The notes under the pieces were generated by a model that saw only the letters and a list, made by a program, of their open reading frames with translations, was not told the DNA's origin and searched no databases. From NCBI GenBank assembly GCA_964613915.1, contig CAZTIW010000014.1:30928-94927 (forward strand): a stretch of DNA of 64,000 nt, given 5' to 3'. The position numbers and the translations under genes were made by a program. Origin of the DNA: an uncultured Thermoanaerobaculia bacterium (GTDB lineage: Bacteria; Acidobacteriota; JBCCFW01). Below, piece by piece: positions 36,973 to 63,757 of the stretch. Within the stretch, counting starts at the first letter, position 1. The number at the start of each line of letters is the position of its first letter.

Positions 36973-38748
36973 CTAGCTCGACGGCGGCGCGGGATCCGGC
37001 GCGTCGGGTGCGGCCTCGGTGGCGTCCGCGACGACGAGCGTCGGCGGAGCCGCCGAGGCGGGGTCGGCCAGCGCGGCGGCGGCCGGGCGCGGGCGCGTGA
37101 CGAAGGCCGCGATCGCGAGCAGGAGCGCCGCGAGGAGGCACGCGATCGCGAGAGCATCGCCGATGCGCGCGTACACGGTGGGCGCGCGGGCGTCGAGGAT
37201 GACCTGCGGGTAGAACACGCCCGCCTCGTTGATGGGCGAGCCCGTGTAGCGTCCGCGAAGGATCTCGCGCGGCCGTCCGTTGGGATCGATGAGCGCGGAG
37301 ATGCCGTCGTTCGTCGCGCGGACGACGCTCGTGCGCCCCTCGATCGCGCGGAAGCCCGAGACCGCGATCGTCATCTCGTGGATCGAGTCGCCCAGCCGTC
37401 CCTCGCTCGTCTGGTTGACGAGGAAGTCCACGCCGAGCCGGTGCCAGCGGTTCACGATGCGCGCCGTCGCGATCTCGAAGCAGATCGGCGCGCCGAACGT
37501 CCAGGTCTTGCCCTGGCGATCCGTGAACGTGAACGGCCGCATCTCGTCCACGGGGCCCGCCACGCCCTCGGGCACGACGCCGACGAATCGCTTGATGAAG
37601 CCCTCCCACGCCCGGCGCGTTCCGTCGCCGAACCGGCCTGCCAGCGCGCGTCCGGGGACGACCTCGGTCCACGGCAGCAGGCGCACCTTGTCGTAGAACT
37701 GCACGCTGCCGTCCGGCAGGACGAGCACGGACGTGTGGACGTCGCCGCCGAGATCGGGCGCGTGGCGCCATCCATCCGCGAGAATCGGTTGCTGGAGGCC
37801 CGCCGCGATGCGCGCGAGGTCGCCGATGAAGTGGGCGTCGGTGTCCCCGCCCCGCGTGCCGAACGGGATCGAGATGGAGTTCTCGGGCCAGAGGATCGCG
37901 TCGGAGTCCTGACGGGCCGTGGAGAGCGTCTGCAAGACCTGCAGGTCGAACAGGTTTCGCGCTTCCTTTTCCACGGGGGAACGAGCCGTGTTCGACTGCA
38001 GGACGTGCAGGCGTGGCCCAGCGCTGAAGTGGGCCTCCGTATCGCGGTGCGTGCCGTAGGCGAACACGCCGGCGAGGAGCAGCGCCACGCCAGCGCCCTG
38101 AAGCATGAGCGATCGCCGCGCGCGCGCGAGGCCCCCGGGCGTCGTCGCGGCGATGGCGGTCTCGGCCAGAAAGCCGTGCAGCGCCGCCAGCCAGAACGTG
38201 ACGGCGGCGACCCCGGCGAGGTCGGCCACCTGCACCATGCGCGTGAGCACGATTTGCGAGTATCCGAGCACGCACAGCGCGAGTTCGCCCGGCGACAGGC
38301 GCAGGCGCAGCCACTCGGTGCCCGTGAAGGTGATGGCCCACAGGAGCGCCAGCGGAAAGGCCGGCCAGCGGCTCCGCACCGAGCGGACCAGAAACCACGC
38401 GGGCAGCACGAGCGGCCAGTAGAACCAAGGCGCGAGCAGCCACGTCGCCGTGCCCTGGCCCCGCAGCCACTCGATGCCGATGAGCGCCATCAGCCACAGG
38501 CCAGCGCAGAAGGCGAGCAGGTTCCATCGCCCGGCGAGGCGCGGGTGGACGGCCACGATCAACCACGGAACGGTGGACCACCAGGCGTGCAGCGCCATCG
38601 CCGTGTCCCGCACGTGAACGCCGTACACGATGCCGCCACCGAGCGAAAGGATGACGACGAGCGCGAGCCGCACGGGATTCCGGAGGGGAGCCGGGCCGGC
38701 GGATTCGGGGGGTCTGGTCGGCTCGGGAGGGGAGGGCTCGGCGTCCAT
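36973..38748 (-). CDS. lnt: Apolipoprotein N-acyltransferase
   Basis: N-terminal polytopic membrane domain followed by carbon-nitrogen hydrolase domain; C-terminal TM helix. Confidence 0.8.
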   Translation of the reverse strand: MDAEPSPPEPTRPPESAGPAPLRNPVRLALVVILSLGGGIVYGVHVRDTAMALHAWWSTVPWLIVAVHPRLAGRWNLLAFCAGLWLMALIGIEWLRGQGTATWLLAPWFYWPLVLPAWFLVRSVRSRWPAFPLALLWAITFTGTEWLRLRLSPGELALCVLGYSQIVLTRMVQVADLAGVAAVTFWLAALHGFLAETAIAATTPGGLARARRSLMLQGAGVALLLAGVFAYGTHRDTEAHFSAGPRLHVLQSNTARSPVEKEARNLFDLQVLQTLSTARQDSDAILWPENSISIPFGTRGGDTDAHFIGDLARIAAGLQQPILADGWRHAPDLGGDVHTSVLVLPDGSVQFYDKVRLLPWTEVVPGRALAGRFGDGTRRAWEGFIKRFVGVVPEGVAGPVDEMRPFTFTDRQGKTWTFGAPICFEIATARIVNRWHRLGVDFLVNQTSEGRLGDSIHEMTIAVSGFRAIEGRTSVVRATNDGISALIDPNGRPREILRGRYTGSPINEAGVFYPQVILDARAPTVYARIGDALAIACLLAALLLAIAAFVTRPRPAAAALADPASAAPPTLVVADATEAAPDAPDPAPPSS

Positions 38749-39660: not shown

Positions 39661-42600
39661 ATGACCCTGCAACGCCATCTGTTCGGGATTCTCCTCGCCG
39701 TCTCGGTTGCCCTCGTGCCGTCATCGGCCCTCGCCGCTGACTCCGATGGCGACGGCGTGGACGACGCCTTCGACAACTGCGTCGCGACGCCGAACCCGGG
39801 CCAGGCCGACGCCGACGGCGACGGTCGCGGTGACGCCTGCGACAACTGCCCGCTCGCGGCGAACCCCCTGCAGGTGGACGCGGACTTCGACGGATTCGGC
39901 AACGTCTGCGATGTCTGCCCGACCGTGGCCGATCCGGGCCAGGCGGACGGGGACGGCGACGGCGTGGGCGACGCGTGCGACAACTGCCCGGCGGACTTCA
40001 ACCCCGGCCAGTCGGACATGGATGGCGACCTGCTCGGCGATCCGTGCGATCCCGATGCCGACGGCGACTTCCTTCCGGACGGCTTCGACAACTGCCCGCT
40101 GGTCCCGAATCCGCTGCAGGAGAACGCCGACTTCGACCCCTTCGGCGACGCCTGCGACAACTGCCCGACGATCCCCTCGGCCTCGCAAGCGGACAATGAC
40201 GGCGACGGCGTGGGCGACGTCTGCGACAACTGCCCGGCAACCCTCAACGCCTCGCAGGCAGACGCCGACGGCGACAACGTGGGCGATGCCTGCGACAACT
40301 GCCCGTCCGCGAACAACGCCCTGCAGTCCGACAGCGACGGCGACGGCATCGGCGACGCGTGCGACATCTGCCCGGCCGTGTTCGACCCCGCGCAGCCCAA
40401 CTCCGACGGCGATGCCTTCGGCGACGGCTGCGACAACTGCCCCACCGTGACGAACGCGCTGCAGTCCGACCAGGACGCGGACGGCGTGGGCGACGCGTGC
40501 GACGACTGCCCGTTCGCGGCCGATCCCGGCCAGACGGACGCGGACGGCGACCTGGTGGGTGACGCCTGCGACAACTGCCCCTCGATCGTCAACAACACGC
40601 AGGCTGACCAGGACGGGGACGGCGTGGGCGATCCGTGCGACAACTGTCCGTCCACCGCCAACGCGGGCCAGGCCGACGCGGACGGCGACGGGCGCGGCGA
40701 TGCGTGCGACAACTGTCCCGGCAACGCCAACCCGGGCCAGGCTGACGATGACGGGGACGGCCTCGGCAACCCTTGCGACAACTGCCGCTTCATGCCGAAC
40801 CCGCTCCAGGAGAACGCCGACGGCGACTCGCGCGGCGACGCGTGCGACAACTGCGTCAACGTCCCGAACGGCGGTCAGGCCAACACCGATGGCGACGCCT
40901 TCGGCAACGCGTGCGACAACTGCCCGACGGTGGCCTCGCTCGATCAGGCGGATGGCGACGGCGACGGCATCGGCGATGTCTGCGACAACTGCCCGACCGT
41001 GAGCAACGCCTCGCAGGCCGACGCCGACACGGATGGCGTCGGCGACGCCTGCGACCAGTGTCCGGCCATCCCCGACACGGATCGCGACGGCGCGTGCGAC
41101 TTCCGGGACAACTGCCCGCTCACGTTCAACCCGGATCAGGCGGATTCGGACATTGACGGCGAGGGCGACGCGTGCGACGGCTGTCCGTGCGATCCCGCGA
41201 ACGTGAACTCGGACGGCGACGCCATCTGTGACTGCGTGGACAACTGCCCGGGCACGACCAACCCCGATCAGCTCGACACGGATCTCGACCGTCGCGGCAA
41301 CGCCTGCGACAACTGCCCGCTCGTCGCGAACCCGTCGCAGCTGGACACGGACGGCGACGGCCGTGGAGACGCCTGCGACAACTGCCCGACGCGCGTGAAC
41401 CTGTCGCAGCTCGACGCCGACGGCGATGGCTTCGGCAACTCGTGCGACAACTGCGTGTTCATCCCGAACCCCACGCAGCTCGACTCGGACGGCGACGGCT
41501 GGGGCGACGTCTGCGACAACTGCCCCGTGGCGAACCCCACGCAGGCGGACGCCGACGGCGACGGCATCGGCGATGCCTGCGACAACTGCCGGAGCGCGGC
41601 CAACGCGACGCAGATCGATGGCGACGGCGACGGCGTGGGTGACGCCTGCGACAACTGCCCGGCGGTCGCCAACGCGACGCAGGCCAACACCGATGGCGAC
41701 GGCGCCGGCAACGCCTGCGACAACTGCCCGACGGTCGCGTCCGCCACGCAGCTGGACTCGGATGGCGACCTGGTGGGCGACGCCTGCGACAACTGCCCGG
41801 GCATCGCGAACGCGACGCAGGCCAATCGCGACGGCGACGCGCTCGGCGACGCCTGCGACAACTGTCCGACGGTGGCGGGCGCCAGCACGGCCGACAGCGA
41901 CGGCGACGGTGTCGGCGACGCGTGCGACAACTGCCCGTCCTTCCCGAACACGCTCCAGAACGACGTGGACCGCGACGGGACGGGCGACTCGTGCGACAAC
42001 TGTCCCAGCGTCGCGAACCCCCTGCAGCAGGATGGCGACGGCGACGGCGTCGGCGACATCTGCGACACCTGTCCCGCGACCGGCGACAACGATCGGGATC
42101 TGGATGGCCGTTGCGGCGACGTGGACAACTGCCCGTTCGTCGGCAACCCCGGCCAGGAGGACGCCGACGGCGACGGCCTCGGCGATGTCTGCGACGCTTG
42201 CCCGCGTGACGCCGCGAACGACGCGGACGGCGACGGCATCTGCGCGAACTCGGACAACTGCCCGACGGTCTTCAACCCGAACCAGGCCGACGCCGACAGC
42301 GACCGGATCGGCGACGCCTGCGATCCGTTCCCGGGCGACACGCTGAACGACGCCGATGGCGACGGCATCCCGGGCACGATCGACAACTGTCCGAACGTCA
42401 GCAACGCGCTGCAGCTCGACGGCGACGGGGACGGGCGCGGGGATGCCTGCGACAACTGTCTCGCGTTCCAGAACGCCGGCCAGGAAGACCTGAACGTCAA
42501 TGGCCGGGGCGATGCCTGCGAGGTCCGCTACGGCGACGTCGCTCCCGCGGGCATGCCTGACGGGGTGCTCAACGTCGGCGATGTCGTGCGCGCGCTCCGC

Positions 42601-42792
42601 TTCGCGGTCGGCCTCGAGGTGCCGACGCGGTCCGAGCGCGACCGGTGCAACGTCGCGCCGGCGCTGCTGGCGGGCGCCAACCCCCAGATCGCCACCCCGA
42701 CGCAGGCGGCCCCGCGGCAGATCGATGTCTCCGATGTCGTGCTGATGCTGCGGGGCTCGGTCGGCCTGCTCGTCTTCACCGATCCGGTCTGA
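39661..42792 (+). CDS. Secreted thrombospondin-type-3 (TSP3) calcium-binding repeat protein, 1043 aa, with dockerin-like C-terminal segment
   Basis: Signal peptide [25 protein letters not shown]; about 40 tandem copies of D[14 protein letters not shown]; C-terminal paired segments [19 protein letters not shown] and [16 protein letters not shown]. Confidence 0.85.
39730..42480 (+). repeat. Intragenic tandem array of about 75-bp TSP3 repeat units
   Basis: Recurrent GACGGCGACGGCGTGGGCGACGCCTGCGACAACTGCCCG-like units throughout the CDS. Confidence 0.8.
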
Positions 42793-54182: not shown

Positions 54183-57100
54183 ATGCCCGTGGCGATGCGT
54201 TGGCGCGGCATGCTCGTTCTGCCGATCGTTGGCATGGTTCTTGCCCCCCCCTCCGCGCTCGCAGGATGGCCCGAGGGACACGTGCAGGTTCAGGTGGAGA
54301 AACCCTGTCCCGTGGGTCCCAGTCGCTCAGGTGTTGGCCTCGGTGACGGGTCGCTGACGCTCGACTTTCCGTTCGTCCTCGTCCCGCAGGCGCCTGGACC
54401 GGTTGTCTTCTCCTTGCAGTACGCCAGCGGAGCGGACAACCCCGGGACGTACGGCACGCGGCTGAACCTGCGCGTCCGGACGGAGAAGCGAACGGACGCG
54501 TGCCCGGGGTTCTCGCCGGCGTCGGACTTCGTTCCGCGAGCGGTGGATGCCGCGGAGGTCAACTTCAACACATCGCCGGGCGATCAGCGCGCCGTGGGCT
54601 TCGGCGTCCGAAAGTCAAACAACGGCGGCTCCTCGGAGGCCTGCAACGTCTCTCGATCGAGTGAGATGCCATTCCCTTCCAGCAACTTGGTTCGAGGGGG
54701 AGGACTGCCGTCGGACTGGTGCCCGGGCGGCCCCGTCGGTGGCCACGGCTGCGTGTCCGACATGGAAGCCGTGGTCACGCTGCCGCTGCGACTCTCGGAT
54801 CCCGGCGATCCAGGAGCGCAGATGGCCTATCAGCGGAAGGCGCCTGGCCAGCCTGACTGTCCACCGCCGGTGCCGAATGAGTTTCCGGCGGATCGCGGGG
54901 TCTACAGCATCAATGCGGGGGCGACGCTTCGATTCGACTCGCCCGCGTACTCAAGGAACGACTACAGCCACGACGACAGGCAGTCCGACGACCCGTGCGA
55001 GCAGTTCCTCTACCTCGAGAAGCGGCCTGACGAGACCATCGCGCGCCTCGGCGTGAACTGGACTCACTCGTTCGCATGGAGCCTGACGGAATATAGCGTT
55101 GGCACGAGGCAGTTCGTTGCAGTGAGGTCGCCGCGCGGGAGCGTGAGCCTGTACGAGCGGCCGGCGGGACTGGCTCTCAACCAGGAACTCCCGCTTCGTC
55201 CCTCGGCAGGCTGTTCGTGCCAATCGGCGCGGCTCTTCTGGACTAGGCGCTCGTTCGCTCCTCCCGGGATCGGCGTGAGCTTCTTCGCCTACGAGCTCGT
55301 GGCCGAAGACGCTTCACGCATGGTCTTCACGGAGTTCAGCGTCTTCGAGGGGGGACAGCTTCGCGCCCCGGCAGGTCGCCTCGTTCGTCTCGAGGACAAC
55401 GATGGCCAGAGTCCCATCGCCCTCACGTACGACACGAACGGCGACCTGGCCCGCGTCTACGATGCAGCGGGCTTCCACGTGGAGCTGCAGTACGCGGAGA
55501 CCCCAAGCGGGCGACGGCTCGAGCGGCTCGTCCTGCCGGGCGGGCGGCAGGTCTCGCTGGGCTGGCTGGCGGGCAAGCTCGCTTCGCTGCGCGACCCCGT
55601 TCATGTCGCTCAGAACCTTCCCGGCTACACGTTCGCCTACGGCACGGGCTTGAGTTCCGAGGACATCACGTGCCGCACGTCGCCTGACGGCGAGATTCAT
55701 CGGTACACGTACATCACCGATCCTGCGGATCCCAACGCCGGCCGGCTCAAGACGGCCGAGATCGTGGACAGCTGCGAGGCTACCGAATCGAAGAACACGC
55801 TGACCTACACGTACTCGCGCCCCGACTCCGTGGACGGCGAGCGCTGGGTGAAGATCACGCCTCACTTGGTGACCACGGCACCCATCATCAAGAACGTTCT
55901 GAACGCCGACGGCCATCTCATCCGCACGGAAGAGATCTGTGCCGAGACGAGCGCCGAGGCTGTTGCGCGATCCTGTCCGGTGGTGCCCGAGATCAGTCCG
56001 CACCCGGTCGTTGCGATGGTGAGCTCCACCAGCTACGACGAGTTCGGACAAGCGCGCGCCGTGCGCACGTACCCCGTGGTGCTCCCTCCCTACGACCCGT
56101 CGGATCCGCCGAGCCCAACGAGCCTCGATGCCACGCACTTCTCGGTATCGTGCGTGACGCGCGATGCGTCGCAAGGCAAGCCCATCACGTTGTTCGGGTC
56201 AACATGCATTGATACCTCGACCGTGCCGCCGACGGCGGTGGATGGCTGGACGGATGAAGCCTGCGACTGCGATCTGGCGCAGCTCAATGCCGCCCCCGTT
56301 CCGACGGTCGCGCCCATCGGCACGCAGGTGAGCTGGGAGTTCGATGTCCAGGGTGCGGGTCCGACGCCGATCCTCGTCACGTACGATCGGCCCCGCCGCG
56401 TGATAGCGCCGAGCCAGCGGACAGACCCCGGGCAGGGCGCGCCTGGAGCCAGCGCCAAGGGCGTGCGGATCTTCTACTACGAGACGGTGGGGTATCCCAT
56501 CCGTTCCCACATCTCGGACATCTGCCCGCCCGAAGTGGACTCACCCGAGCCCGGGTTGGGCTGCGAGCACTTCGAGTACAACTTCTACACGATCCACGGC
56601 GGCGACGTGGTTCAGCTTGCGAGCCGGACGGACGGCTCGGGGAACACGTGGACCTACGAGTACGATCCGCTGACGCATCTCCTGTCGCGGATCACCGCTC
56701 CGTCGTCGGACGGACAGCAGTTCGTGACGAACTTCCAGTACGGCACCGACGGACTCTTGAACTACGTCGAGGCGCCGGGCGGTCTCGTGACCGCGTTCCT
56801 GCGCAACGAGCGCGGACAGATCGCGATCGAGTCCCGCCCGGGCGCGGCGCCGCCGGAGCGCATGCAAGTCCGCTACACGTACACGCCCGGGGGCAAGCTG
56901 CGGCGCATCGCGGATGAGAGCCGGGAGTCGCAATCCTCCCCGGGGAAGTACGTCGCGTGGTGGATCAGTTATGGCGGACCGGCGGTGTTCAGCGACTGGG
57001 GTGCCGAGCCCGCACAGTTCGAACGACTCCCCCGTGCGCTGCGGCGCGGCCCGGCCACTCTGGGCGGGCCGTTCGCCACGATTGACGCGGACGAGCTTCA

Positions 57101-59282
57101 ACCTGATGAGCTGGCCGGAACGGTTTACGAGAGCTGGGACTACGACAGCAACCTCCAGCCCGTGGCGACCTACTACGGCCCTCCGTTCACCTTCAGGCGC
57201 GCACTCGTGACGAAGCGCGATGGCTTCGGTGCCGCACTCGACCTGGTCATCATGGGCCAAGGAGATTCGCCCGCCTTTTTAGAGCGAACCTGCATCGAGT
57301 CCGACCCGCGGACCGGCCTGCCACGCTCGGTCTCGTTCAGCCTGGCCCCGCCCGACGAGGATGACCTCAACTGCCCCCTGACGAACGGCGCCATGCGGCA
57401 CTCCTTCACCTACGATCGCGCAGGCCGCGCCTCCTCCACGAGCATGCAGTGGGACTTCGGAGCCGAAGGCGCGGGACTGCACCAGACCTGCCGCCAGCAT
57501 GATCCCTGGGGTCGGCTGACTCAGGTCGTGGACGAGGTGACGCTCGCGCCCACTCCCGGCTGCGATCCGATCTCGGCCTTCCGGACGACCGACGTCGCTC
57601 ACGATGACGCGGATCGTCCCTGGCTCGTGACGCTGTCCAACGCGGGGCTCCCCTACGCCGACTACCAGGTCGAGTACGACAACAACCAGCGCGCCTTCAA
57701 GTGGACCGAGGCACAATCCCGCGAGTACCTGGCGATGTCGTATCGTCCTGACGGTCTGCTGACGAACATCACGCGCGGTCGCCCGCACTCGGGTGGCTCG
57801 TCCTGGCTCGACACGAAGTTCACGCAGGACCTGCGGTACGATGCCCGGGGGTTTGTCATGCGCCTCGAGCAGCATCGCCTGCCGTACCTGTGGCCGTCGG
57901 GGGACACGACGTGGTTCTACACGCATGACGACGCGGGCCGGCTCACGGGGGCAGCGCTCGATCCCGTGGACTGGCCGTCGCTTCCGAACATCGTGGACGA
58001 GTCGTACGCCTACCTGCCCTCCAATCCCTGGAACCTCGCGTCCATCACGGACAACCTGACCAGCACGACGACAGCGTTCCCGACCGATGACGAGGATCGC
58101 ATCCAGACCCCGGATCGCGAGTATCACGCGTTCATCGGAGCGCTGAAGAGGGAGAACGGCGCGGGAGGCCAGACGCGGCGATACCGCTGGGATGTCGCGG
58201 GCCGCCTCATGGCCGTGCTGGAGGGCACCGACGCGACGGGGTACGCCGGGACGGCCTACTCGTACGATCCCTGGAACCGCCTCGTCGCCGAGCGACCGAT
58301 CACCACGGCGACGGCCACGGGCCAGCCCGTCTCGGCCGGCTCGCCGACGATTCACCTGTGGAGCGGATGGCAGCAGGTGGGGGAGGTGGAGTCGTTCGCG
58401 TCGGCGCCGGCGTTCGCGTGGAGCGACGGGCCGATGGGCCTCGCGGGCATCAAGCGCGAGGGCTCGTCACACGAGAGGCTGTTCTCGGACGCGCAGGGGT
58501 CGGTGAAGTACGGCTTCGCAGACGATCCCGTGTACACGCCGTTCGGCAAGGTGGTGAGCGGCACGCTGAGCACGGCCAAGGGCTTCCAGGGCCAGGAATG
58601 GCGCGACGAGGCGCGGCTCTACTACATGCGCCACCGCTGGTACGACCCCGCCAGCGCGCGCTTCCTGTCGCGCGACCCCGTGCGCACGGGCGCGATCCAT
58701 AACTTCGCGTTCGCGATGGATAGCCCGGTGATGATGGGGGATCCGATGGGGTTGGATACCTTCGTTCTCATTGCTCATGCAGGCGGGGGCGGCGACAAGA
58801 AGGGCTCGTTTGGCCATGCTGCGCTTGTGACGTGGGATGAAACCGGGGCCGGAGGGTTCGTCGACCACATGGGCCAGAACTCCATGTGGGATCCCAGTCC
58901 GAGCATTTCCATTCCGCACGCTGATCGCGTCTCTCGGTTCGTCAGCAACTATGTTCGAGGCAACCACCGAGACGTGAGCATCTTCGAACTCGATCTGAGT
59001 GCTGAGGTCGAGGCTGCATTGCGCAATGCTATCTCCGCTCGCGCCGGTGCCCCGGAACCGAAAAGGCTCTTCACCAACAACTGTACAGATGTCGTGACAG
59101 ACGTGCTCCATCAGGCAGGCGTGAGCGAGCGAGTGCGGATATTAGGTCCGTTTCCACTGTTTCTATTCACGATGAGAGTACCGCTCGGTGGAGGGCACGG
59201 AATCAGCTGGCCGGATAGGCTCCACTCCTCTCTTCTGAAGGCTCCGTTCACACGTAGCTACACGCGAATTGAGGCCCAGTGA
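54183..59282 (+). CDS. RHS/YD-repeat polymorphic toxin, about 1700 aa, with signal peptide and variable C-terminal toxin tip (CT1)
   Basis: ATG at 54183 preceded by GGAGG; signal MPVAMRWRGMLVLPIVGMVLAPPSALA; many YD-type repeats; core end LYYMRHRWYDPASARFLSRDPV followed by the DPMGL boundary; divergent 175-aa tip. Confidence 0.9.
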   Translation: MPVAMRWRGMLVLPIVGMVLAPPSALAGWPEGHVQVQVEKPCPVGPSRSGVGLGDGSLTLDFPFVLVPQAPGPVVFSLQYASGADNPGTYGTRLNLRVRTEKRTDACPGFSPASDFVPRAVDAAEVNFNTSPGDQRAVGFGVRKSNNGGSSEACNVSRSSEMPFPSSNLVRGGGLPSDWCPGGPVGGHGCVSDMEAVVTLPLRLSDPGDPGAQMAYQRKAPGQPDCPPPVPNEFPADRGVYSINAGATLRFDSPAYSRNDYSHDDRQSDDPCEQFLYLEKRPDETIARLGVNWTHSFAWSLTEYSVGTRQFVAVRSPRGSVSLYERPAGLALNQELPLRPSAGCSCQSARLFWTRRSFAPPGIGVSFFAYELVAEDASRMVFTEFSVFEGGQLRAPAGRLVRLEDNDGQSPIALTYDTNGDLARVYDAAGFHVELQYAETPSGRRLERLVLPGGRQVSLGWLAGKLASLRDPVHVAQNLPGYTFAYGTGLSSEDITCRTSPDGEIHRYTYITDPADPNAGRLKTAEIVDSCEATESKNTLTYTYSRPDSVDGERWVKITPHLVTTAPIIKNVLNADGHLIRTEEICAETSAEAVARSCPVVPEISPHPVVAMVSSTSYDEFGQARAVRTYPVVLPPYDPSDPPSPTSLDATHFSVSCVTRDASQGKPITLFGSTCIDTSTVPPTAVDGWTDEACDCDLAQLNAAPVPTVAPIGTQVSWEFDVQGAGPTPILVTYDRPRRVIAPSQRTDPGQGAPGASAKGVRIFYYETVGYPIRSHISDICPPEVDSPEPGLGCEHFEYNFYTIHGGDVVQLASRTDGSGNTWTYEYDPLTHLLSRITAPSSDGQQFVTNFQYGTDGLLNYVEAPGGLVTAFLRNERGQIAIESRPGAAPPERMQVRYTYTPGGKLRRIADESRESQSSPGKYVAWWISYGGPAVFSDWGAEPAQFERLPRALRRGPATLGGPFATIDADELQPDELAGTVYESWDYDSNLQPVATYYGPPFTFRRALVTKRDGFGAALDLVIMGQGDSPAFLERTCIESDPRTGLPRSVSFSLAPPDEDDLNCPLTNGAMRHSFTYDRAGRASSTSMQWDFGAEGAGLHQTCRQHDPWGRLTQVVDEVTLAPTPGCDPISAFRTTDVAHDDADRPWLVTLSNAGLPYADYQVEYDNNQRAFKWTEAQSREYLAMSYRPDGLLTNITRGRPHSGGSSWLDTKFTQDLRYDARGFVMRLEQHRLPYLWPSGDTTWFYTHDDAGRLTGAALDPVDWPSLPNIVDESYAYLPSNPWNLASITDNLTSTTTAFPTDDEDRIQTPDREYHAFIGALKRENGAGGQTRRYRWDVAGRLMAVLEGTDATGYAGTAYSYDPWNRLVAERPITTATATGQPVSAGSPTIHLWSGWQQVGEVESFASAPAFAWSDGPMGLAGIKREGSSHERLFSDAQGSVKYGFADDPVYTPFGKVVSGTLSTAKGFQGQEWRDEARLYYMRHRWYDPASARFLSRDPVRTGAIHNFAFAMDSPVMMGDPMGLDTFVLIAHAGGGGDKKGSFGHAALVTWDETGAGGFVDHMGQNSMWDPSPSISIPHADRVSRFVSNYVRGNHRDVSIFELDLSAEVEAALRNAISARAGAPEPKRLFTNNCTDVVTDVLHQAGVSERVRILGPFPLFLFTMRVPLGGGHGISWPDRLHSSLLKAPFTRSYTRIEAQ
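57768..58754 (+). repeat. Copy A (inside full-length rhs) of a 987-bp near-identical direct repeat
   Basis: Identical ORF translations recur with a constant offset of 2142 bp (57793-58059 vs 59935-60201; 58192-58506 vs 60334-60648); ends exactly at the DPMGL codons. Confidence 0.9.
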
Positions 59283-59872
59283 GTTCCCGGAAAGCGAGGA
59301 CCCAGGTGGCGCTGCGGCTGCGCGGCGTCGTCGCTGCTCTCATCGCCCGGCCCTGGAGTGTCATCCTCATCGTTGCCGGATGCCTCGCACTGTGGACGGC
59401 GACTCACGTCCTTTGCCACGCGAGGAGTCTGAACCGTCAACTCGCGGACTTTGGCGATCTCCTGAACACTCGGTACTGCCTTGGAGCAATCGACATTGCT
59501 GCGCTCGATCCTGCGCGCATCTCTGGTGACATGGTGGGCGCCTGCCGTCTCATTGACGTGTACGGTCATCAAGTCTCGCTACACGTGTGGTCAGACGGCA
59601 CTAAAGTGCTTTGGTTGCTCGTGTCGCCCGGACGGGATGGCATGCTGGACTGGCCGCTCGAGGTCTATCAGCAAGAGGCCACGGAGATGCAAGGGGATAT
59701 CGGTCGTGACATTCTCGGCGACTTTGATGCTGACATCGTCATCTCCGAGCGCAAGCTCATTCAGTTCCCTAACAAGGTGGATGCCACGATCGCTGATGTC
59801 CTCGGAATCCCCATCGCAAGCCCAGCGCGCTCTCGAAGGACGCTCCGCCCGAGTCAGCGTGAACCGCATTAA
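59279..59872 (+). CDS. Putative cognate immunity protein for CT1
   Basis: GTG start overlapping the rhs stop (GTGA); N-terminal TM helix; local GC is lower than the flanks. Confidence 0.5.
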   Translation: MSSRKARTQVALRLRGVVAALIARPWSVILIVAGCLALWTATHVLCHARSLNRQLADFGDLLNTRYCLGAIDIAALDPARISGDMVGACRLIDVYGHQVSLHVWSDGTKVLWLLVSPGRDGMLDWPLEVYQQEATEMQGDIGRDILGDFDADIVISERKLIQFPNKVDATIADVLGIPIASPARSRRTLRPSQREPH

Positions 59873-59909
59873 TAAGTGGCGCCACTCAGGCCCCCGCTAT
59901 CTGAATACC

Positions 59910-60896
59910 ATCACGCGCGGTCGCCCGCACTCGGGTGGCTCGTCCTGGCTCGACACGAAGTTCACGCAGGACCTGCGGTACGATGCCCGGGGGTTTGTCA
60001 TGCGCCTCGAGCAGCATCGCCTGCCGTACCTGTGGCCGTCGGGGGACACGACGTGGTTCTACACGCATGACGACGCGGGCCGGCTCACGGGGGCAGCGCT
60101 CGATCCCGTGGACTGGCCGTCGCTTCCGAACATCGTGGACGAGTCGTACGCCTACCTGCCCTCCAATCCCTGGAACCTCGCGTCCATCACGGACAACCTG
60201 ACCAGCACGACGACAGCGTTCCCGACCGATGACGAGGATCGCATCCAGACCCCGGATCGCGAGTATCACGCGTTCATCGGAGCGCTGAAGAGGGAGAACG
60301 GCGCGGGAGGCCAGACGCGGCGATACCGCTGGGATGTCGCGGGCCGCCTCATGGCCGTGCTGGAGGGCACCGACGCGACGGGGTACGCCGGGACGGCCTA
60401 CTCGTACGATCCCTGGAACCGCCTCGTCGCCGAGCGACCGATCACCACGGCGACGGCCACGGGCCAGCCCGTCTCGGCCGGCTCGCCGACGATTCACCTG
60501 TGGAGCGGATGGCAGCAGGTGGGGGAGGTGGAGTCGTTCGCGTCGGCGCCGGCGTTCGCGTGGAGCGACGGGCCGATGGGCCTCGCGGGCATCAAGCGCG
60601 AGGGCTCGTCACACGAGAGGCTGTTCTCGGACGCGCAGGGGTCGGTGAAGTACGGCTTCGCAGACGATCCCGTGTACACGCCGTTCGGCAAGGTGGTGAG
60701 CGGCACGCTGAGCACGGCCAAGGGCTTCCAGGGCCAGGAATGGCGCGACGAGGCGCGGCTCTACTACATGCGCCACCGCTGGTACGACCCCGCCAGCGCG
60801 CGCTTCCTGTCGCGCGACCCCGTGCGCACTGGCGCGATCCATAACTTCGCGTTCGCGATGGATAGCCCCGTGATGATGGGGGATCCGATGGGGTTG
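59910..60896 (+). repeat. Copy B (orphan rhs fragment) of the same 987-bp direct repeat
   Basis: As copy A; two single-base differences seen, both synonymous in the rhs frame (ACG/ACT Thr near 58688/60830; CCG/CCC Pro near 58737/60879). Confidence 0.9.
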
Positions 60897-61439
60897 CTGC
60901 CGGCATGGATGGAGGCCGAACTCGCGCAGGCGTATGGCAATGGTTCGTTCGCTGAAAAGGAGGCGACGTTGAGGCGCGCTGTCGCGTTGCTTCGACAGTG
61001 CGCTGCGCCAGACTATCGGAAGACCGTGGGGAACGCGCTGGGTGCGGTCAACGTTCGGGCAATGCTAGCTCGGCCACCTCAGTCGGGCGGCAGTGGGCGC
61101 GCAGGATTCACCAATCCGCACACGGGTGACGTGACGATTACTGCGTTGGCCTTCCGTTCACTTCCGCCGCAGGCAGACGGGAGGGTTAGTTCTCGAGTTC
61201 CGGTAAAGAATGGCACTTGGTCTCCAGCCGGCTACACGCCTCCGATTGGTTCCGCCACGAAGTGGGATGGTCTTCTGATAGCGATCGCCCACGAAGGCCA
61301 GCACGTTGCGGATGTGCTGAGCCGGCAGGGACCTCCCGGTCCGCCGCTGCAAACCTTCGATCCGCGTCACGTTGAGATCCACGAGACCGCTCACGCCATC
61401 GTCGAATCGATGTACTACGCGGGCTGCAACTGTGACTAG
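59910..61439 (+). other. Orphan rhs C-terminal cassette: about 330 codons of rhs core fused to an alternative toxin tip (CT2) with HExxH motifs; no own start
   Basis: In-frame continuation of the RHS core from ITRGRPHSGG to DPMGL, then unrelated 180-aa tip containing AHEGQH and IHETAH; the 5-prime part of the long ORF (59481-59909) overlaps the immunity gene out of frame. Confidence 0.7.
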
Positions 61440-61449
61440 GAGTTCCTTC

Positions 61450-62151
61450 ATGAGGGTACTCGTGCTGGGAATGAGCTTCGCCCTGGTCACGGCGCAACAC
61501 GTGGAGTGCGACGCGAGGGCAGGCTCGGCATCGCTTCGAGAGTCTCGTGCGGTGTTCGTGTCGGATCCGAGGTCACCTAGCAACAGGACAAGACTTGCGG
61601 GCATTCAGTGGCCCGAGGATCCGGACGCGGCCTGTGTCGCCAAGCGCTTTGCCGATGCACTTCTCGCGCGAGAGGGAGCGCGCCCGGTGCGGCGCGGCAA
61701 ACGCCAAGCGGCGCGCATCGAGTTGACCGTGCTCTGGCTGCCCGGGGGGCATCACGGGTACGACGAGTACTGGGATCCCGAGCGCGAGGAGACGCGGGTT
61801 GACTTCGCGCAAGTCTTGGTCGCGACGGGCGCTGCGGTAGTGGACCCCAAGCCGCTCCAGACGTCGAGGAGGCAAGTGTGTGGCCTCCGGATCGGCGAGG
61901 AAATTGCCGAGCGCGGGTATCGCGGAGCATGGGCTCCTGCACTGCAAATGGGTTCGTGCGGAGACCTTTCTGTCCAGTGGTCAATCTTCTTGGGAGAAGA
62001 GAATGCGCAAGCCCTTGTCGTCTGGATTCGGGACGAACTCGCATGCCTCCCGGTGGCATGCGGAGGCGGGACGCCAGAATTCTGCGACGGCGAAATCGCT
62101 GATCTCGTTCGCCAACTGCACGAGCACGAGGAGGAAGGCCGCCGGCCATGA
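61450..62151 (+). CDS. Putative cognate immunity protein for CT2
   Basis: ATG at 61450 with AGGAG 8 nt upstream, 11 bp after the CT2 stop; Cys-containing 233-aa protein. Confidence 0.45.
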   Translation: MRVLVLGMSFALVTAQHVECDARAGSASLRESRAVFVSDPRSPSNRTRLAGIQWPEDPDAACVAKRFADALLAREGARPVRRGKRQAARIELTVLWLPGGHHGYDEYWDPEREETRVDFAQVLVATGAAVVDPKPLQTSRRQVCGLRIGEEIAERGYRGAWAPALQMGSCGDLSVQWSIFLGEENAQALVVWIRDELACLPVACGGGTPEFCDGEIADLVRQLHEHEEEGRRP

Positions 62152-62194: not shown

Positions 62195-63757
62195 ATGGTC
62201 TCCTTCGTCAGCCTGTTGTTCCTGTTTGGGATGTTCGCTTCATGCGCAGGCGCATGCTCGTGTCGCGTCTCCGCCAAGCGCGCTCAACCCAGTACGAGCG
62301 AGAGCCCCATGCCGCTGGCCGTGGCCTTGAAGCGTGCCGACCTCGTGACCCTCGGCACGCTTGACATGTCGCCCGAGAGTGACTGCGAGTCGGGCGTCGG
62401 ATTCCGAGTCGAGCGCATCCTGAAGGGCGATGGCCGCGACAGGGAGTCCGTGTGTCTGGGCGATGCTGTCTCGCGCGAGCGGCTTCCGATTCCATTCCTC
62501 GTCAGCGAGGGGAGCGTGCTCGCGCTTCTGCGCCGTGAGCGTCAGGCGACAGCGGTGGGACCGGCGACGTACACGCCAGTTCCGAATCTGGCGGGACTCA
62601 TGCCGCTGGACATCGTCGCGTTCTGCCCGGTCGTGTCGATCAGGCCCGATCAGATCGGAATCCCGGCCGGGTTCAACGGCATGTGGCTGCGGTACCCGGA
62701 TTTCTCTCCCGCTTTCGTGTTCATGACGACGCTCGTTGACATGGAGGAGGCCGTCAGGGGTGAGCGGCCCCGGATGCCGCCGAGCGCCGTGGAAGGGGAT
62801 CGGCCGGGCTTGCGGCGTCCTGCGGCTCCGGGCGGCGGGCCATTACAGGCGCGTCCGCCGCGGCGCGGCAACGTCGCGGGAGCGCGACAGCGAGCGAGCC
62901 CCCTCCTGAGTCACGCTCCGAGGCACGCTGGACTGTTCGCCGCCATCCTCCCCGAGGGAGTCGCGGCGCTCGGTGACGGGGCGTTCGCCATCGCGCATCG
63001 AGGGGGCGCGGCGGTGTCGGTGGGCGAGACGTTCGTGGACACGGCGGGCGATCCGGCGCCGCGCGAGGTCGGGCGGTTCGGGGGCTTCGGCGAGGACGAG
63101 TGCCGGTTCGTGCAGCCGGTGGACGTGGCTGGCGAGAGGTCGCGCGTGCGCGTGCTCGATCGCGTCCGCCGCGTGGTCGTCGAGGTGGACTTCAGTCAGG
63201 AGACGCCAACATGCCTTCGCGAGATCGTGCTGGCGGAGGTTCGCGATCCCGAGGCGGTCGAGGTGTCGCCCGACGGCGCGGTGCTCGTGCTGGACGCTGG
63301 CGAGAACGTCATCCGCGTGGTGCGGGATGGCGCGCTCACCGACAGGCGCATCGGAGCGTTCGGGCGGGGACGCGAGGGCATGAGCTGTCCGCATGATCTG
63401 GCGCTCGGCGCGGACGGGACGATCTACGTGGCCGATTCGGGCAACCGACGCATCCAGCGGTACCGGCTGTCGGATGGCGCATGCCTCGGGCCGTGGGGAA
63501 GCCACGGGAACGCGGCCGATCAGTTCATTGACCCCACCGGGGTTGCCATGAACGAGAACGGCGAGCTTCTCGTGGCCGATCGCTACGCGCATCGCATCCA
63601 GGTCTTCGATGTCGGCGCCGGGCGCGAGGAAGTGGCGCGACGCCTGGAGCTGCCCCCGCAGGTTCGGTATCCGACGCGGCTCGCGGTGCTGGCTGGAAAC
63701 CTCTGCGTCGTGACCTGCGCGCAGCCCTCCGAGGTGTGGGTGATGGCATGTCCGTGA
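62195..63757 (+). CDS. NHL-repeat beta-propeller lipoprotein
   Basis: Signal MVSFVSLLFLFGMFASCAGAC; C-terminal NHL-type repeats (DGTIYVADSGNRRIQRY, NGELLVADRYAHRIQVF). Confidence 0.7.
   Translation: MVSFVSLLFLFGMFASCAGACSCRVSAKRAQPSTSESPMPLAVALKRADLVTLGTLDMSPESDCESGVGFRVERILKGDGRDRESVCLGDAVSRERLPIPFLVSEGSVLALLRRERQATAVGPATYTPVPNLAGLMPLDIVAFCPVVSIRPDQIGIPAGFNGMWLRYPDFSPAFVFMTTLVDMEEAVRGERPRMPPSAVEGDRPGLRRPAAPGGGPLQARPPRRGNVAGARQRASPLLSHAPRHAGLFAAILPEGVAALGDGAFAIAHRGGAAVSVGETFVDTAGDPAPREVGRFGGFGEDECRFVQPVDVAGERSRVRVLDRVRRVVVEVDFSQETPTCLREIVLAEVRDPEAVEVSPDGAVLVLDAGENVIRVVRDGALTDRRIGAFGRGREGMSCPHDLALGADGTIYVADSGNRRIQRYRLSDGACLGPWGSHGNAADQFIDPTGVAMNENGELLVADRYAHRIQVFDVGAGREEVARRLELPPQVRYPTRLAVLAGNLCVVTCAQPSEVWVMACP

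Follow-up and report, generated by a model that had tools for sequence, protein, structure and literature searches.

In the 64,000-nucleotide stretch of DNA analyzed here (hereafter the window; contig CAZTIW010000014.1 of assembly GCA_964613915.1, positions 30,928 to 94,927 of the forward strand, from an uncultured Thermoanaerobaculia bacterium), an Rhs/YD-repeat polymorphic toxin gene ends in a 175-residue tip, CT1, which we consider, with moderate confidence, to be a highly divergent, circularly permuted NlpC/P60-type (papain-like) Cys-His enzyme that acts on membrane acyl-lipids and is blocked by Imm1, the product of the next gene. The putative relatives of CT1 would be DUF4105/Lnb (an acyltransferase), Tox-Act1 (a phospholipase toxin), and TseH.

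A Candidate His-Cys Enzyme at the Tip of an Rhs Protein

Translation of nucleotides 58755-59282 yields 175 codons and a stop at the 3' end of the rhs frame (table 1) and confirms the two segments to which a first-pass annotation of the sequence had drawn attention, GSFGHAALV upstream and LFTNNCTDVV downstream, with H21 and C110 as the candidate catalytic residues. C110 is the sole Cys of CT1, and both the pattern GH-x(80-115)-NC(T/S) and the shorter NNC(T/S) occur once in the six frames of the window, in CT1. The first-pass annotation had likened this order, His before Cys, to that of permuted papain-like enzymes and had named a hidden Markov model (HMM) search as a check. In a Pfam scan reported at E-values up to 1, CT1 matched one family only, PF13387 (Lnb_N, formerly DUF4105), with an E-value of 2.5e-4 for the whole library and a score of 21.1 bits; LRAT (PF04970), NLPC_P60 (PF00877), CHAP, Peptidase_C92, Peptidase_C97, and DUF6695 (TseH) were all unmatched at that threshold. 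DUF4105 is a papain-like, NlpC/P60-type domain (PMC11573676, PMC10318531). The permuted papain-like reading is thus upheld to the extent of a borderline match to a permuted NlpC/P60 family, and it falls short in that the score stays below the curated gathering cut-off of the Lnb_N model (22.2 bits). CT1 had no match in NCBIfam and just three weak ones in PHROGs (E-values of at least 0.014), to families of unknown function.

The Lnb_N model was then used to rescore mutated, truncated, and shuffled versions of CT1. Residues 1-125 alone scored 21.5 bits, still below the cut-off, and a construct lacking residues 39-55 scored 21.4 bits. The match proved sensitive to the residues around the Cys: C110A lowered the score to 13.1 bits (a loss of 8.0) and N109A to 15.3 bits (a loss of 5.8), T111A left 20.5 bits, and replacement of N109-C110-T111, which we take to be the motif named in the Pfam description of PF13387, by three alanines abolished the match. 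A full shuffle of CT1 also gave no match, nor did any of ten shuffles in which RLFTNNCTDVV was held in place. The match therefore requires N109-C110 together with about 50 surrounding residues. Because it spans the Cys motif and is lost on both full and motif-keeping shuffling, the His...Cys arrangement of CT1 appears to be more than a product of chance. Outside the aligned stretch, the score dropped only with H21A (20.1 bits, a loss of 1.0) and G20A (20.6 bits, a loss of 0.5), and H8A, D37A, H38A, H55A, and H148A shifted it by 0.3 bit at most. We regard the effect of G20A and H21A as a small but specific sign, which suggests that some of the alignment ensemble pairs GH20-21 with a conserved position of the profile.

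Profile Comparison with Tox-Act1

Tox-Act1 (STox_15), a phospholipase toxin of the permuted NlpC/P60 type, belongs to the SPI-6 type VI secretion system (T6SS) of Salmonella and was described in a 2025-26 study as a sister clade of DUF4105 (PMC12994826). It is toxic in the periplasm only and yields lysophospholipids by cleaving phosphatidylglycerol and phosphatidylethanolamine. Either of the substitutions H43A and C151A inactivates it, and its immunity protein, Imm-Act1, which has two transmembrane helices, neutralizes it (PMC12994826). Starting from a seed on the Aeromonas caviae plasmid NZ_AP022111.1 (12957-13904), we collected 35 homologs of Tox-Act1 and 29 genomic loci. The seed itself is annotated as hypothetical, has no Pfam match, and lacks a PAAR or Rhs N-terminal domain; it lies amid insertion sequence elements on a conjugative MOBF plasmid.

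When CT1 was compared with the Tox-Act1 profiles by hhalign, the alignment covered the Cys helix only: residues 104-124 (21 columns, P = 2-9e-4) paired with the NNC(T/S)xx(V/S)xxL(K/H)xAG helix of Tox-Act1. With relaxed extension, hhalign followed a collinear path in which KGSFGH was paired with K-GTGH and the predicted elements came in the same order. A MAFFT alignment with all 34 full-length homologs placed G20, H21, N109, C110, P153, and L156 of CT1 in invariant columns, and hmmsearch with the Tox-Act1 profile gave CT1 5.9 bits. Judged from these alignments, the catalytic-helix signature is all that CT1 shares with Tox-Act1.

How weak such scores are has to be seen against the superfamily as a whole. 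The validated Tox-Act1 proteins do not match Lnb_N in Pfam, and an hmmsearch of the PDB with the Tox-Act1 profile retrieved neither TseH nor any other NlpC/P60 structure, the only match being a repeat-driven adiponectin artifact. It takes profile-profile or structural comparison to connect the clades of this superfamily, and HMM-to-sequence searches under-detect their relationships. Since even validated members are barely linked by HMMs, weak scores are expected for CT1, and by the standard of the superfamily its 21-bit match to Lnb_N is comparatively strong.

Evidence against the Assignment and the Possibility of an Unrelated Fold

Several observations weigh against the assignment of CT1 to this superfamily. 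The Lnb_N score is 1.1 bits short of the cut-off, and N109 and C110 contribute roughly a third of it. The His-bearing N-terminal half takes part in no significant alignment, and GSFGH21 lies outside the reported Lnb_N alignment. In the hhalign comparison with Tox-Act1, the probability was just 23-44%, compared with 96.5% (E = 8e-10) for our positive control, an Rhs tip on the Pseudanabaena plasmid NC_019690.1 that is an accepted divergent member. A glocal alignment of the whole Tox-Act1 profile to any part of CT1 scored on a par with shuffles (z about 1), and the MAFFT placement of H21 was unstable, being right only with the 34 full-length homologs and wrong with 30 sequences or with any domain-only set. 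The putative immunity protein of CT1 and that of Tox-Act1, both membrane-associated, differ in their number of transmembrane helices (one in Imm1, two in Imm-Act1). Two further points concern homologs and structure. Our searches yielded no homolog of CT1 that would show whether H21 or C110 is conserved. The structure prediction that the first-pass annotation had also proposed gave no reliable model: AlphaFold2 reached a predicted local distance difference test (pLDDT) value of 38 from the single sequence and of 48 from an alignment of CT1 with 34 Tox-Act1 homologs, so that there is no structural support for the fold. Both models place a helix at 109/111-120, with low confidence.

The failure to find homologs extended to every search made with CT1. 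A word-index protein search returned none at E-values up to 1e-3 or up to 10, phmmer had no match in the PDB at E-values up to 10, tblastn against plasmids gave a chance match only, and back-translated 8-mer scans of GTDB species genomes and JGI metagenomes disclosed no relative. A phmmer search of 1.84 billion representative proteins, in which tips on Rhs shells may hide in clusters represented by another tip, retrieved only the protein itself and four repeat-driven matches; these were rejected as spurious on Pfam scans of all four and BLASTP of two (E-values of at least 0.49). The 1,699-residue Rhs protein is 100% identical to one database protein, which comes from an NCBI contig of 101,984 bp and forms a singleton cluster. 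We thus provisionally regard CT1 as a sequence orphan.

Such results would also be expected if CT1 were a toxin of an unrelated, undescribed fold, its match to Lnb_N being as coincidental as its GH and NNCT motifs. The subthreshold match, the nonsignificant full-length similarity to Tox-Act1, the lack of homologs in our searches, and the poor AlphaFold2 model (pLDDT 48) obtained even with the Tox-Act1 alignment all fit this explanation, as does the notorious diversity of polymorphic toxin tips. It would, however, leave to chance that the single match (E = 2.5e-4 over the whole library) needs the motif as well as its flanks, that the sole Cys falls exactly in the signature N-C-T, where a predicted helix begins, that the score responds specifically to G20 and H21, and that CT1 occurs in the same Rhs-tip context as known members. 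We consider an unrelated fold unlikely, albeit a contender to be reckoned with, and retain the permuted NlpC/P60-type enzyme as the preferred reading.

The Rhs Carrier, Its Immunity Gene, and a Second Cassette

The frame is uninterrupted for 1,699 codons, from the ATG at 54183 through the stop of CT1, and its product matches RHS_repeat in Pfam (E = 4e-16) and both TIGR03696 (Rhs_assc_core, E = 6e-18) and TIGR01643 in NCBIfam. All the features of an Rhs/YD carrier are present: YD/RHS repeats, a core with a PxxxxDPxGL end, a variable tip, and a downstream immunity-like gene. The TIGR03696 match ends at residue 1524, the L of DSPVMMGDPMGL, and the next residues, DTF, belong to the tip, so the start of CT1 coincides exactly with the release point of Rhs tips. 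By analogy with what is known of Rhs and Tc proteins, GDPMGL is the expected site of autoproteolytic release. The N-terminus (table 1) looks like a Sec signal peptide, with a predicted cleavage site before GW. The Pfam scan disclosed no PAAR or VgrG domain in the Rhs protein, and there was no T6SS gene among the neighboring genes scanned (about 37-54 kb and 61.9-63.8 kb of the window).

In Imm1, the N-terminus is positively charged and precedes a single strong transmembrane helix (residues 28-46, KD19 2.17). It has no match in Pfam, NCBIfam, or PHROGs and a single weak, noncredible one in the PDB (E = 0.77). Given its position, it is probably a membrane-anchored immunity protein with a periplasmic C-terminal domain; such an anchor and periplasmic domain point to a target in the cell envelope.

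Downstream of imm1, a copy of the end of the rhs shell carries an alternative tip, CT2, which has no match in Pfam or NCBIfam, and the open reading frame (ORF) that follows (61450-62151) is probably the immunity gene of CT2. The succession rhs-CT1-imm1 and rhs-CT2-imm2 is a classic orphan rhs toxin-immunity array. The GC content at third codon positions (GC3) is 0.84 in the Rhs shell (54183-58754) versus 0.64-0.69 in CT1 (0.64), imm1 (0.69), CT2, and imm2, and the local GC content is 58-62% over 58755-62151 versus 71.8% for the whole window, which suggests that the toxin-immunity cassettes were acquired from elsewhere.

The atypical codon usage of CT1 (GC3 0.64) and its singleton sequence might also be read as signs that it is an inactive, decaying relic, retained as the end of the main rhs gene, and that the cassette of consequence is the orphan one with CT2. 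This we regard as very improbable: the frame is open for 1,699 codons to the stop of the tip, the candidate catalytic residues are intact, and so is imm1 downstream, with its 4-nucleotide overlap. Moreover, because CT2 and imm2 show the same shift in GC3, the low value is a mark of foreign origin and not of decay.

Table 1. Features of the rhs toxin-immunity array, with positions in the window.
Feature	Position	Strand	Description
Rhs/YD-repeat polymorphic toxin gene	54183-59282	+	1699 aa plus stop, ATG 54183; translation
Predicted Sec signal peptide	54183-54263	+	MPVAMRWRGMLVLPIVGMVLAPPSALA, followed by GW; read from sequence; KD19 maximum 1.85 in hydrophobic core
Rhs repeat-associated core domain	58533-58754	+	TIGR03696; protein residues 1451-1524, full model 1-76; ends GDPMGL
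CT1, C-terminal toxin tip	58755-59279	+	175 aa; starts directly after GDPMGL; translation
GSFGHAALV	58803-58829	+	CT1 residues 17-25; candidate catalytic His21 (58815-58817); translation
D37-H38	58863-58868	+	Candidate third triad member, from spacing only; H38 is 17 residues past H21
PF13387 Lnb_N-matched stretch	58929-59120	+	CT1 residues 59-122 aligned to profile positions 86-152 of 175
LFTNNCTDVV	59067-59096	+	CT1 residues 105-114; candidate nucleophile Cys110 (59082-59084); predicted helix N-terminus; translation
Hydrophobic segment after Cys helix	59133-59189	+	VRILGPFPLFLFTMRVPLG, CT1 residues 127-145; KD19 maximum 1.22
Putative immunity gene imm1	59279-59872	+	197 aa, GTG start; 4-nt overlap with rhs stop (GTGA)
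Orphan rhs core fragment	59906-60896	+	99.5% identical copy of 57764-58754 (last ~330 shell codons); ends exactly DPMGL
CT2, alternative tip	60897-61439	+	180 aa; zincin-like AHEGQH and HETAH motifs
Putative imm2	61450-62151	+	Predicted signal peptide MRVLVLGMSFALVTAQ; putative role, from position

Neighboring Genes

The neighboring genes scanned encode 2-oxoacid dehydrogenase E1/E2, lipoyl synthase, lipoate ligase, PolX, a thrombospondin-repeat protein, and an Lnt-like protein. The thrombospondin-repeat protein (39661-42789, + strand; 1,043 residues) contains 15 thrombospondin type-3 repeats (E = 2e-124) and is probably a secreted, calcium-binding surface protein. On the other side of the array, 62195-63757 (+ strand) encodes an NHL-repeat (beta-propeller) protein with a lipoprotein-like signal, MVSFVSLLFLFGMFASC; its true start is likely at 62195, and a longer ORF from 61880, which overlaps imm2, is probably not real. 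The GC content of 72% gives rise to many long antisense or overlapping ORFs, for instance one of 214 residues opposite CT1 (58467-59111, - strand), which position-specific GC content indicates are not genes.

Proposed Mechanism and Its Implications

In the mechanism that we propose, CT1 would be a toxic, exchangeable tip on an Rhs/YD shell protein exported by Sec. The aspartyl protease of the Rhs core would release it by cutting after GDPMGL, and the tip would reach the cell envelope of a competitor. There, Cys110, at the start of its helix, would be activated by His21, itself oriented by His38 or Asp37. The spacing of 17 residues between H21 and H38 equals that of His49 to Asn66 in Lnb and of His64 to Glu81 in TseH (PMC11573676). 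Cys110 would attack the fatty-acyl ester of a membrane lipid to form a thioester, and resolution of this thioester by water would amount to phospholipase A activity, generating lysophospholipids and lysing the membrane; alternatively, the acyl group would be transferred to an acceptor. Imm1, translated together with the toxin and anchored in the membrane with a periplasmic C-terminal domain, would shield the producing cell.

The alternative outcome, acyl transfer, leads to a more specific proposal, in which CT1 represents an unsampled clade of permuted NlpC/P60 enzymes, nearer to Lnb than to Tox-Act1, that kills by acyl transfer and is borne on a Sec-exported, T6SS-independent Rhs protein in a genome of 72% GC. 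For example, it might cause aberrant acylation or de-acylation of lipoproteins or lipids in the target envelope. We rate this proposal as speculative and rather improbable.

The same permuted papain-like fold could also serve a peptide or amide substrate, CT1 then being a peptidoglycan amidase or endopeptidase (Tae-like, as first proposed for TseH) or a PPPDE-like isopeptidase that damages the cell wall. The NlpC/P60 superfamily does include many peptidoglycan hydrolase toxins, some Tox-Act1 homologs are labeled Peptidase_C97, and an Imm1 that is exported and anchored in the membrane is compatible with any periplasmic target. In characterized LRAT/HRASLS, YiiX-like, Lnb, and Tox-Act1 proteins, however, the permuted order of His before Cys goes with acyl-lipid substrates, and TseH too shows phospholipase activity (PMC12994826). 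Furthermore, NLPC_P60, CHAP, Peptidase_C92, and Peptidase_C97 are unmatched in CT1, whose sole match is to an acyltransferase domain. A peptide substrate is, in our estimate, an outside chance, and acyl-lipids remain the preferred target.

Should CT1 indeed act on lipids, the permuted NlpC/P60 toxins that target them (Tox-Act1 and TseH) would gain a sequence-orphan branch nearer to the Lnb acyltransferases, carried by an Rhs protein that depends on Sec and is encoded outside any T6SS locus. The enzyme class would then be wider among polymorphic toxins than family HMMs reveal, and CT1, with its 175 residues, would offer a compact test case for acyl hydrolysis versus transfer. Homologs of Tox-Act1 are linked to Rhs proteins, PAAR proteins, and type V secretion systems, and many form the tips of Rhs proteins and are paired with membrane immunity proteins (PMC12994826). 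Because Rhs tips of the permuted NlpC/P60 lipid-toxin class have thus already been published, CT1 holds no conceptual surprise; what is new, and of moderate interest, is an orphan copy missed by the family models, on a Sec-type Rhs protein outside a T6SS locus.

Comparison with Known Enzyme Families and Toxins

Since CT1 lacks at least one of the tested defining features of each of the families Lnb_N, Tox-Act1, TseH, and LRAT, we class it as a putative enzyme that works as they do and as a divergent new representative of the kind, within no named family. The Tae-family NlpC/P60 amidase effectors (PF00877) resemble CT1 in the use of papain-like Cys-His chemistry for interbacterial killing; in these effectors, however, Cys precedes His and the substrates are peptidoglycan, whereas CT1 has the opposite order and no PF00877 match.

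LRAT/HRASLS (H-rev107, PF04970), the family that the first-pass annotation had in mind, resembles CT1 in three respects: His precedes Cys, as in the permuted arrangement; the catalytic helix opens with an NC dipeptide; and a hydrophobic segment follows that helix. The corresponding HRASLS motif is NCEHF, and the second His of HRASLS3 comes at a spacing of 12, as against 17 in CT1. LRAT/HRASLS enzymes have a C-terminal hydrophobic anchor, by analogy with which the segment VRILGPFPLFLFTMRVPLG of CT1 may contact the membrane. On the other hand, the family is eukaryotic and viral, CT1 is a bacterial Rhs tip, and we know of no LRAT/HRASLS protein in such a position. With PF04970 unmatched at E-values up to 1, LRAT was set aside as the family of CT1; DUF4105/Lnb comes nearest among the families, and Tox-Act1 is the functional analog.

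TseH (Vibrio cholerae VCA0285, DUF6695, PDB 6V98), also a T6SS toxin, belongs to the same superfamily; its triad is E81-H64-C172 (PMC11573676, PMC10318531), and its His-to-polar spacing, 17, equals that in CT1. Its phospholipase activity was reported at pH 8.9 (PMC12994826). Membership of CT1 in this family was rejected, as there was no DUF6695 match at E-values up to 1 and no PDB match (6V98) at E-values up to 10.

Lnb is the lipoprotein N-acyltransferase of Bacteroides, of which Lnb_N is the periplasmic domain (PMC11573676), and its triad is N66-H49-C148 (PMC11573676, PMC10318531). Lnb/DUF4105 and CT1 are alike in an upstream GH motif, which in CT1 lies outside the aligned stretch, in the order of His before Cys, and in an N-C-T motif (N109-C110-T111 in CT1) within the aligned stretch, the catalytic Cys being C148 in Lnb; Lnb and CT1 are also alike in the polar residue 17 positions past the His (N66 and H38, respectively). 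The distance from His to Cys is 89 in CT1 versus 99 in Lnb. Lnb, a housekeeping enzyme of the inner membrane, has 398 residues and five transmembrane helices; CT1, by contrast, is a 175-residue Rhs tip next to an immunity-like gene. We accordingly did not assign CT1 to Lnb_N/DUF4105, given the score under the cut-off, the lack of fusion to C-terminal transmembrane helices, and the lack of a housekeeping lipoprotein-maturation context. Elsewhere in the window, 36973-38748 (- strand) encodes a 591-residue protein that Pfam matches weakly to CN_hydrolase (24.1 bits) and to LNT_N (24.3 bits). This protein is probably Lnt, the canonical apolipoprotein N-acyltransferase, in which case the organism would have no need of an Lnb-type housekeeping enzyme.

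As a sequence family, Tox-Act1 was rejected for CT1 (21 aligned columns, z about 1, and 5.9 bits), with the family motifs TETKGTGH, YTYGRYG, and EDFxIPSSL absent, although WPDRLHSSLL, loosely like IPSSL, is a possible remnant of the last. The His-to-Cys distance is 89 in CT1 versus 108 in Tox-Act1, and the carrier of CT1, which has a Sec signal peptide and lacks a PAAR or T6SS context, is unlike that of Tox-Act1. The published table of Tox-Act1 homologs lists many Rhs-core fusions from several phyla, a few of which carry the Pfam label DUF4105, and some homologs are labeled Peptidase_C97 (PMC12994826). Like CT1, Tox-Act1 forms the tip of a polymorphic toxin and has its His ahead of its Cys, many of its homologs stand behind an Rhs core ending in DPxGL, and the catalytic motifs GTGH (H43) and NNC(T/S) (C151) of Tox-Act1 have their candidate counterparts in GSFGH21 and NNC110T of CT1.

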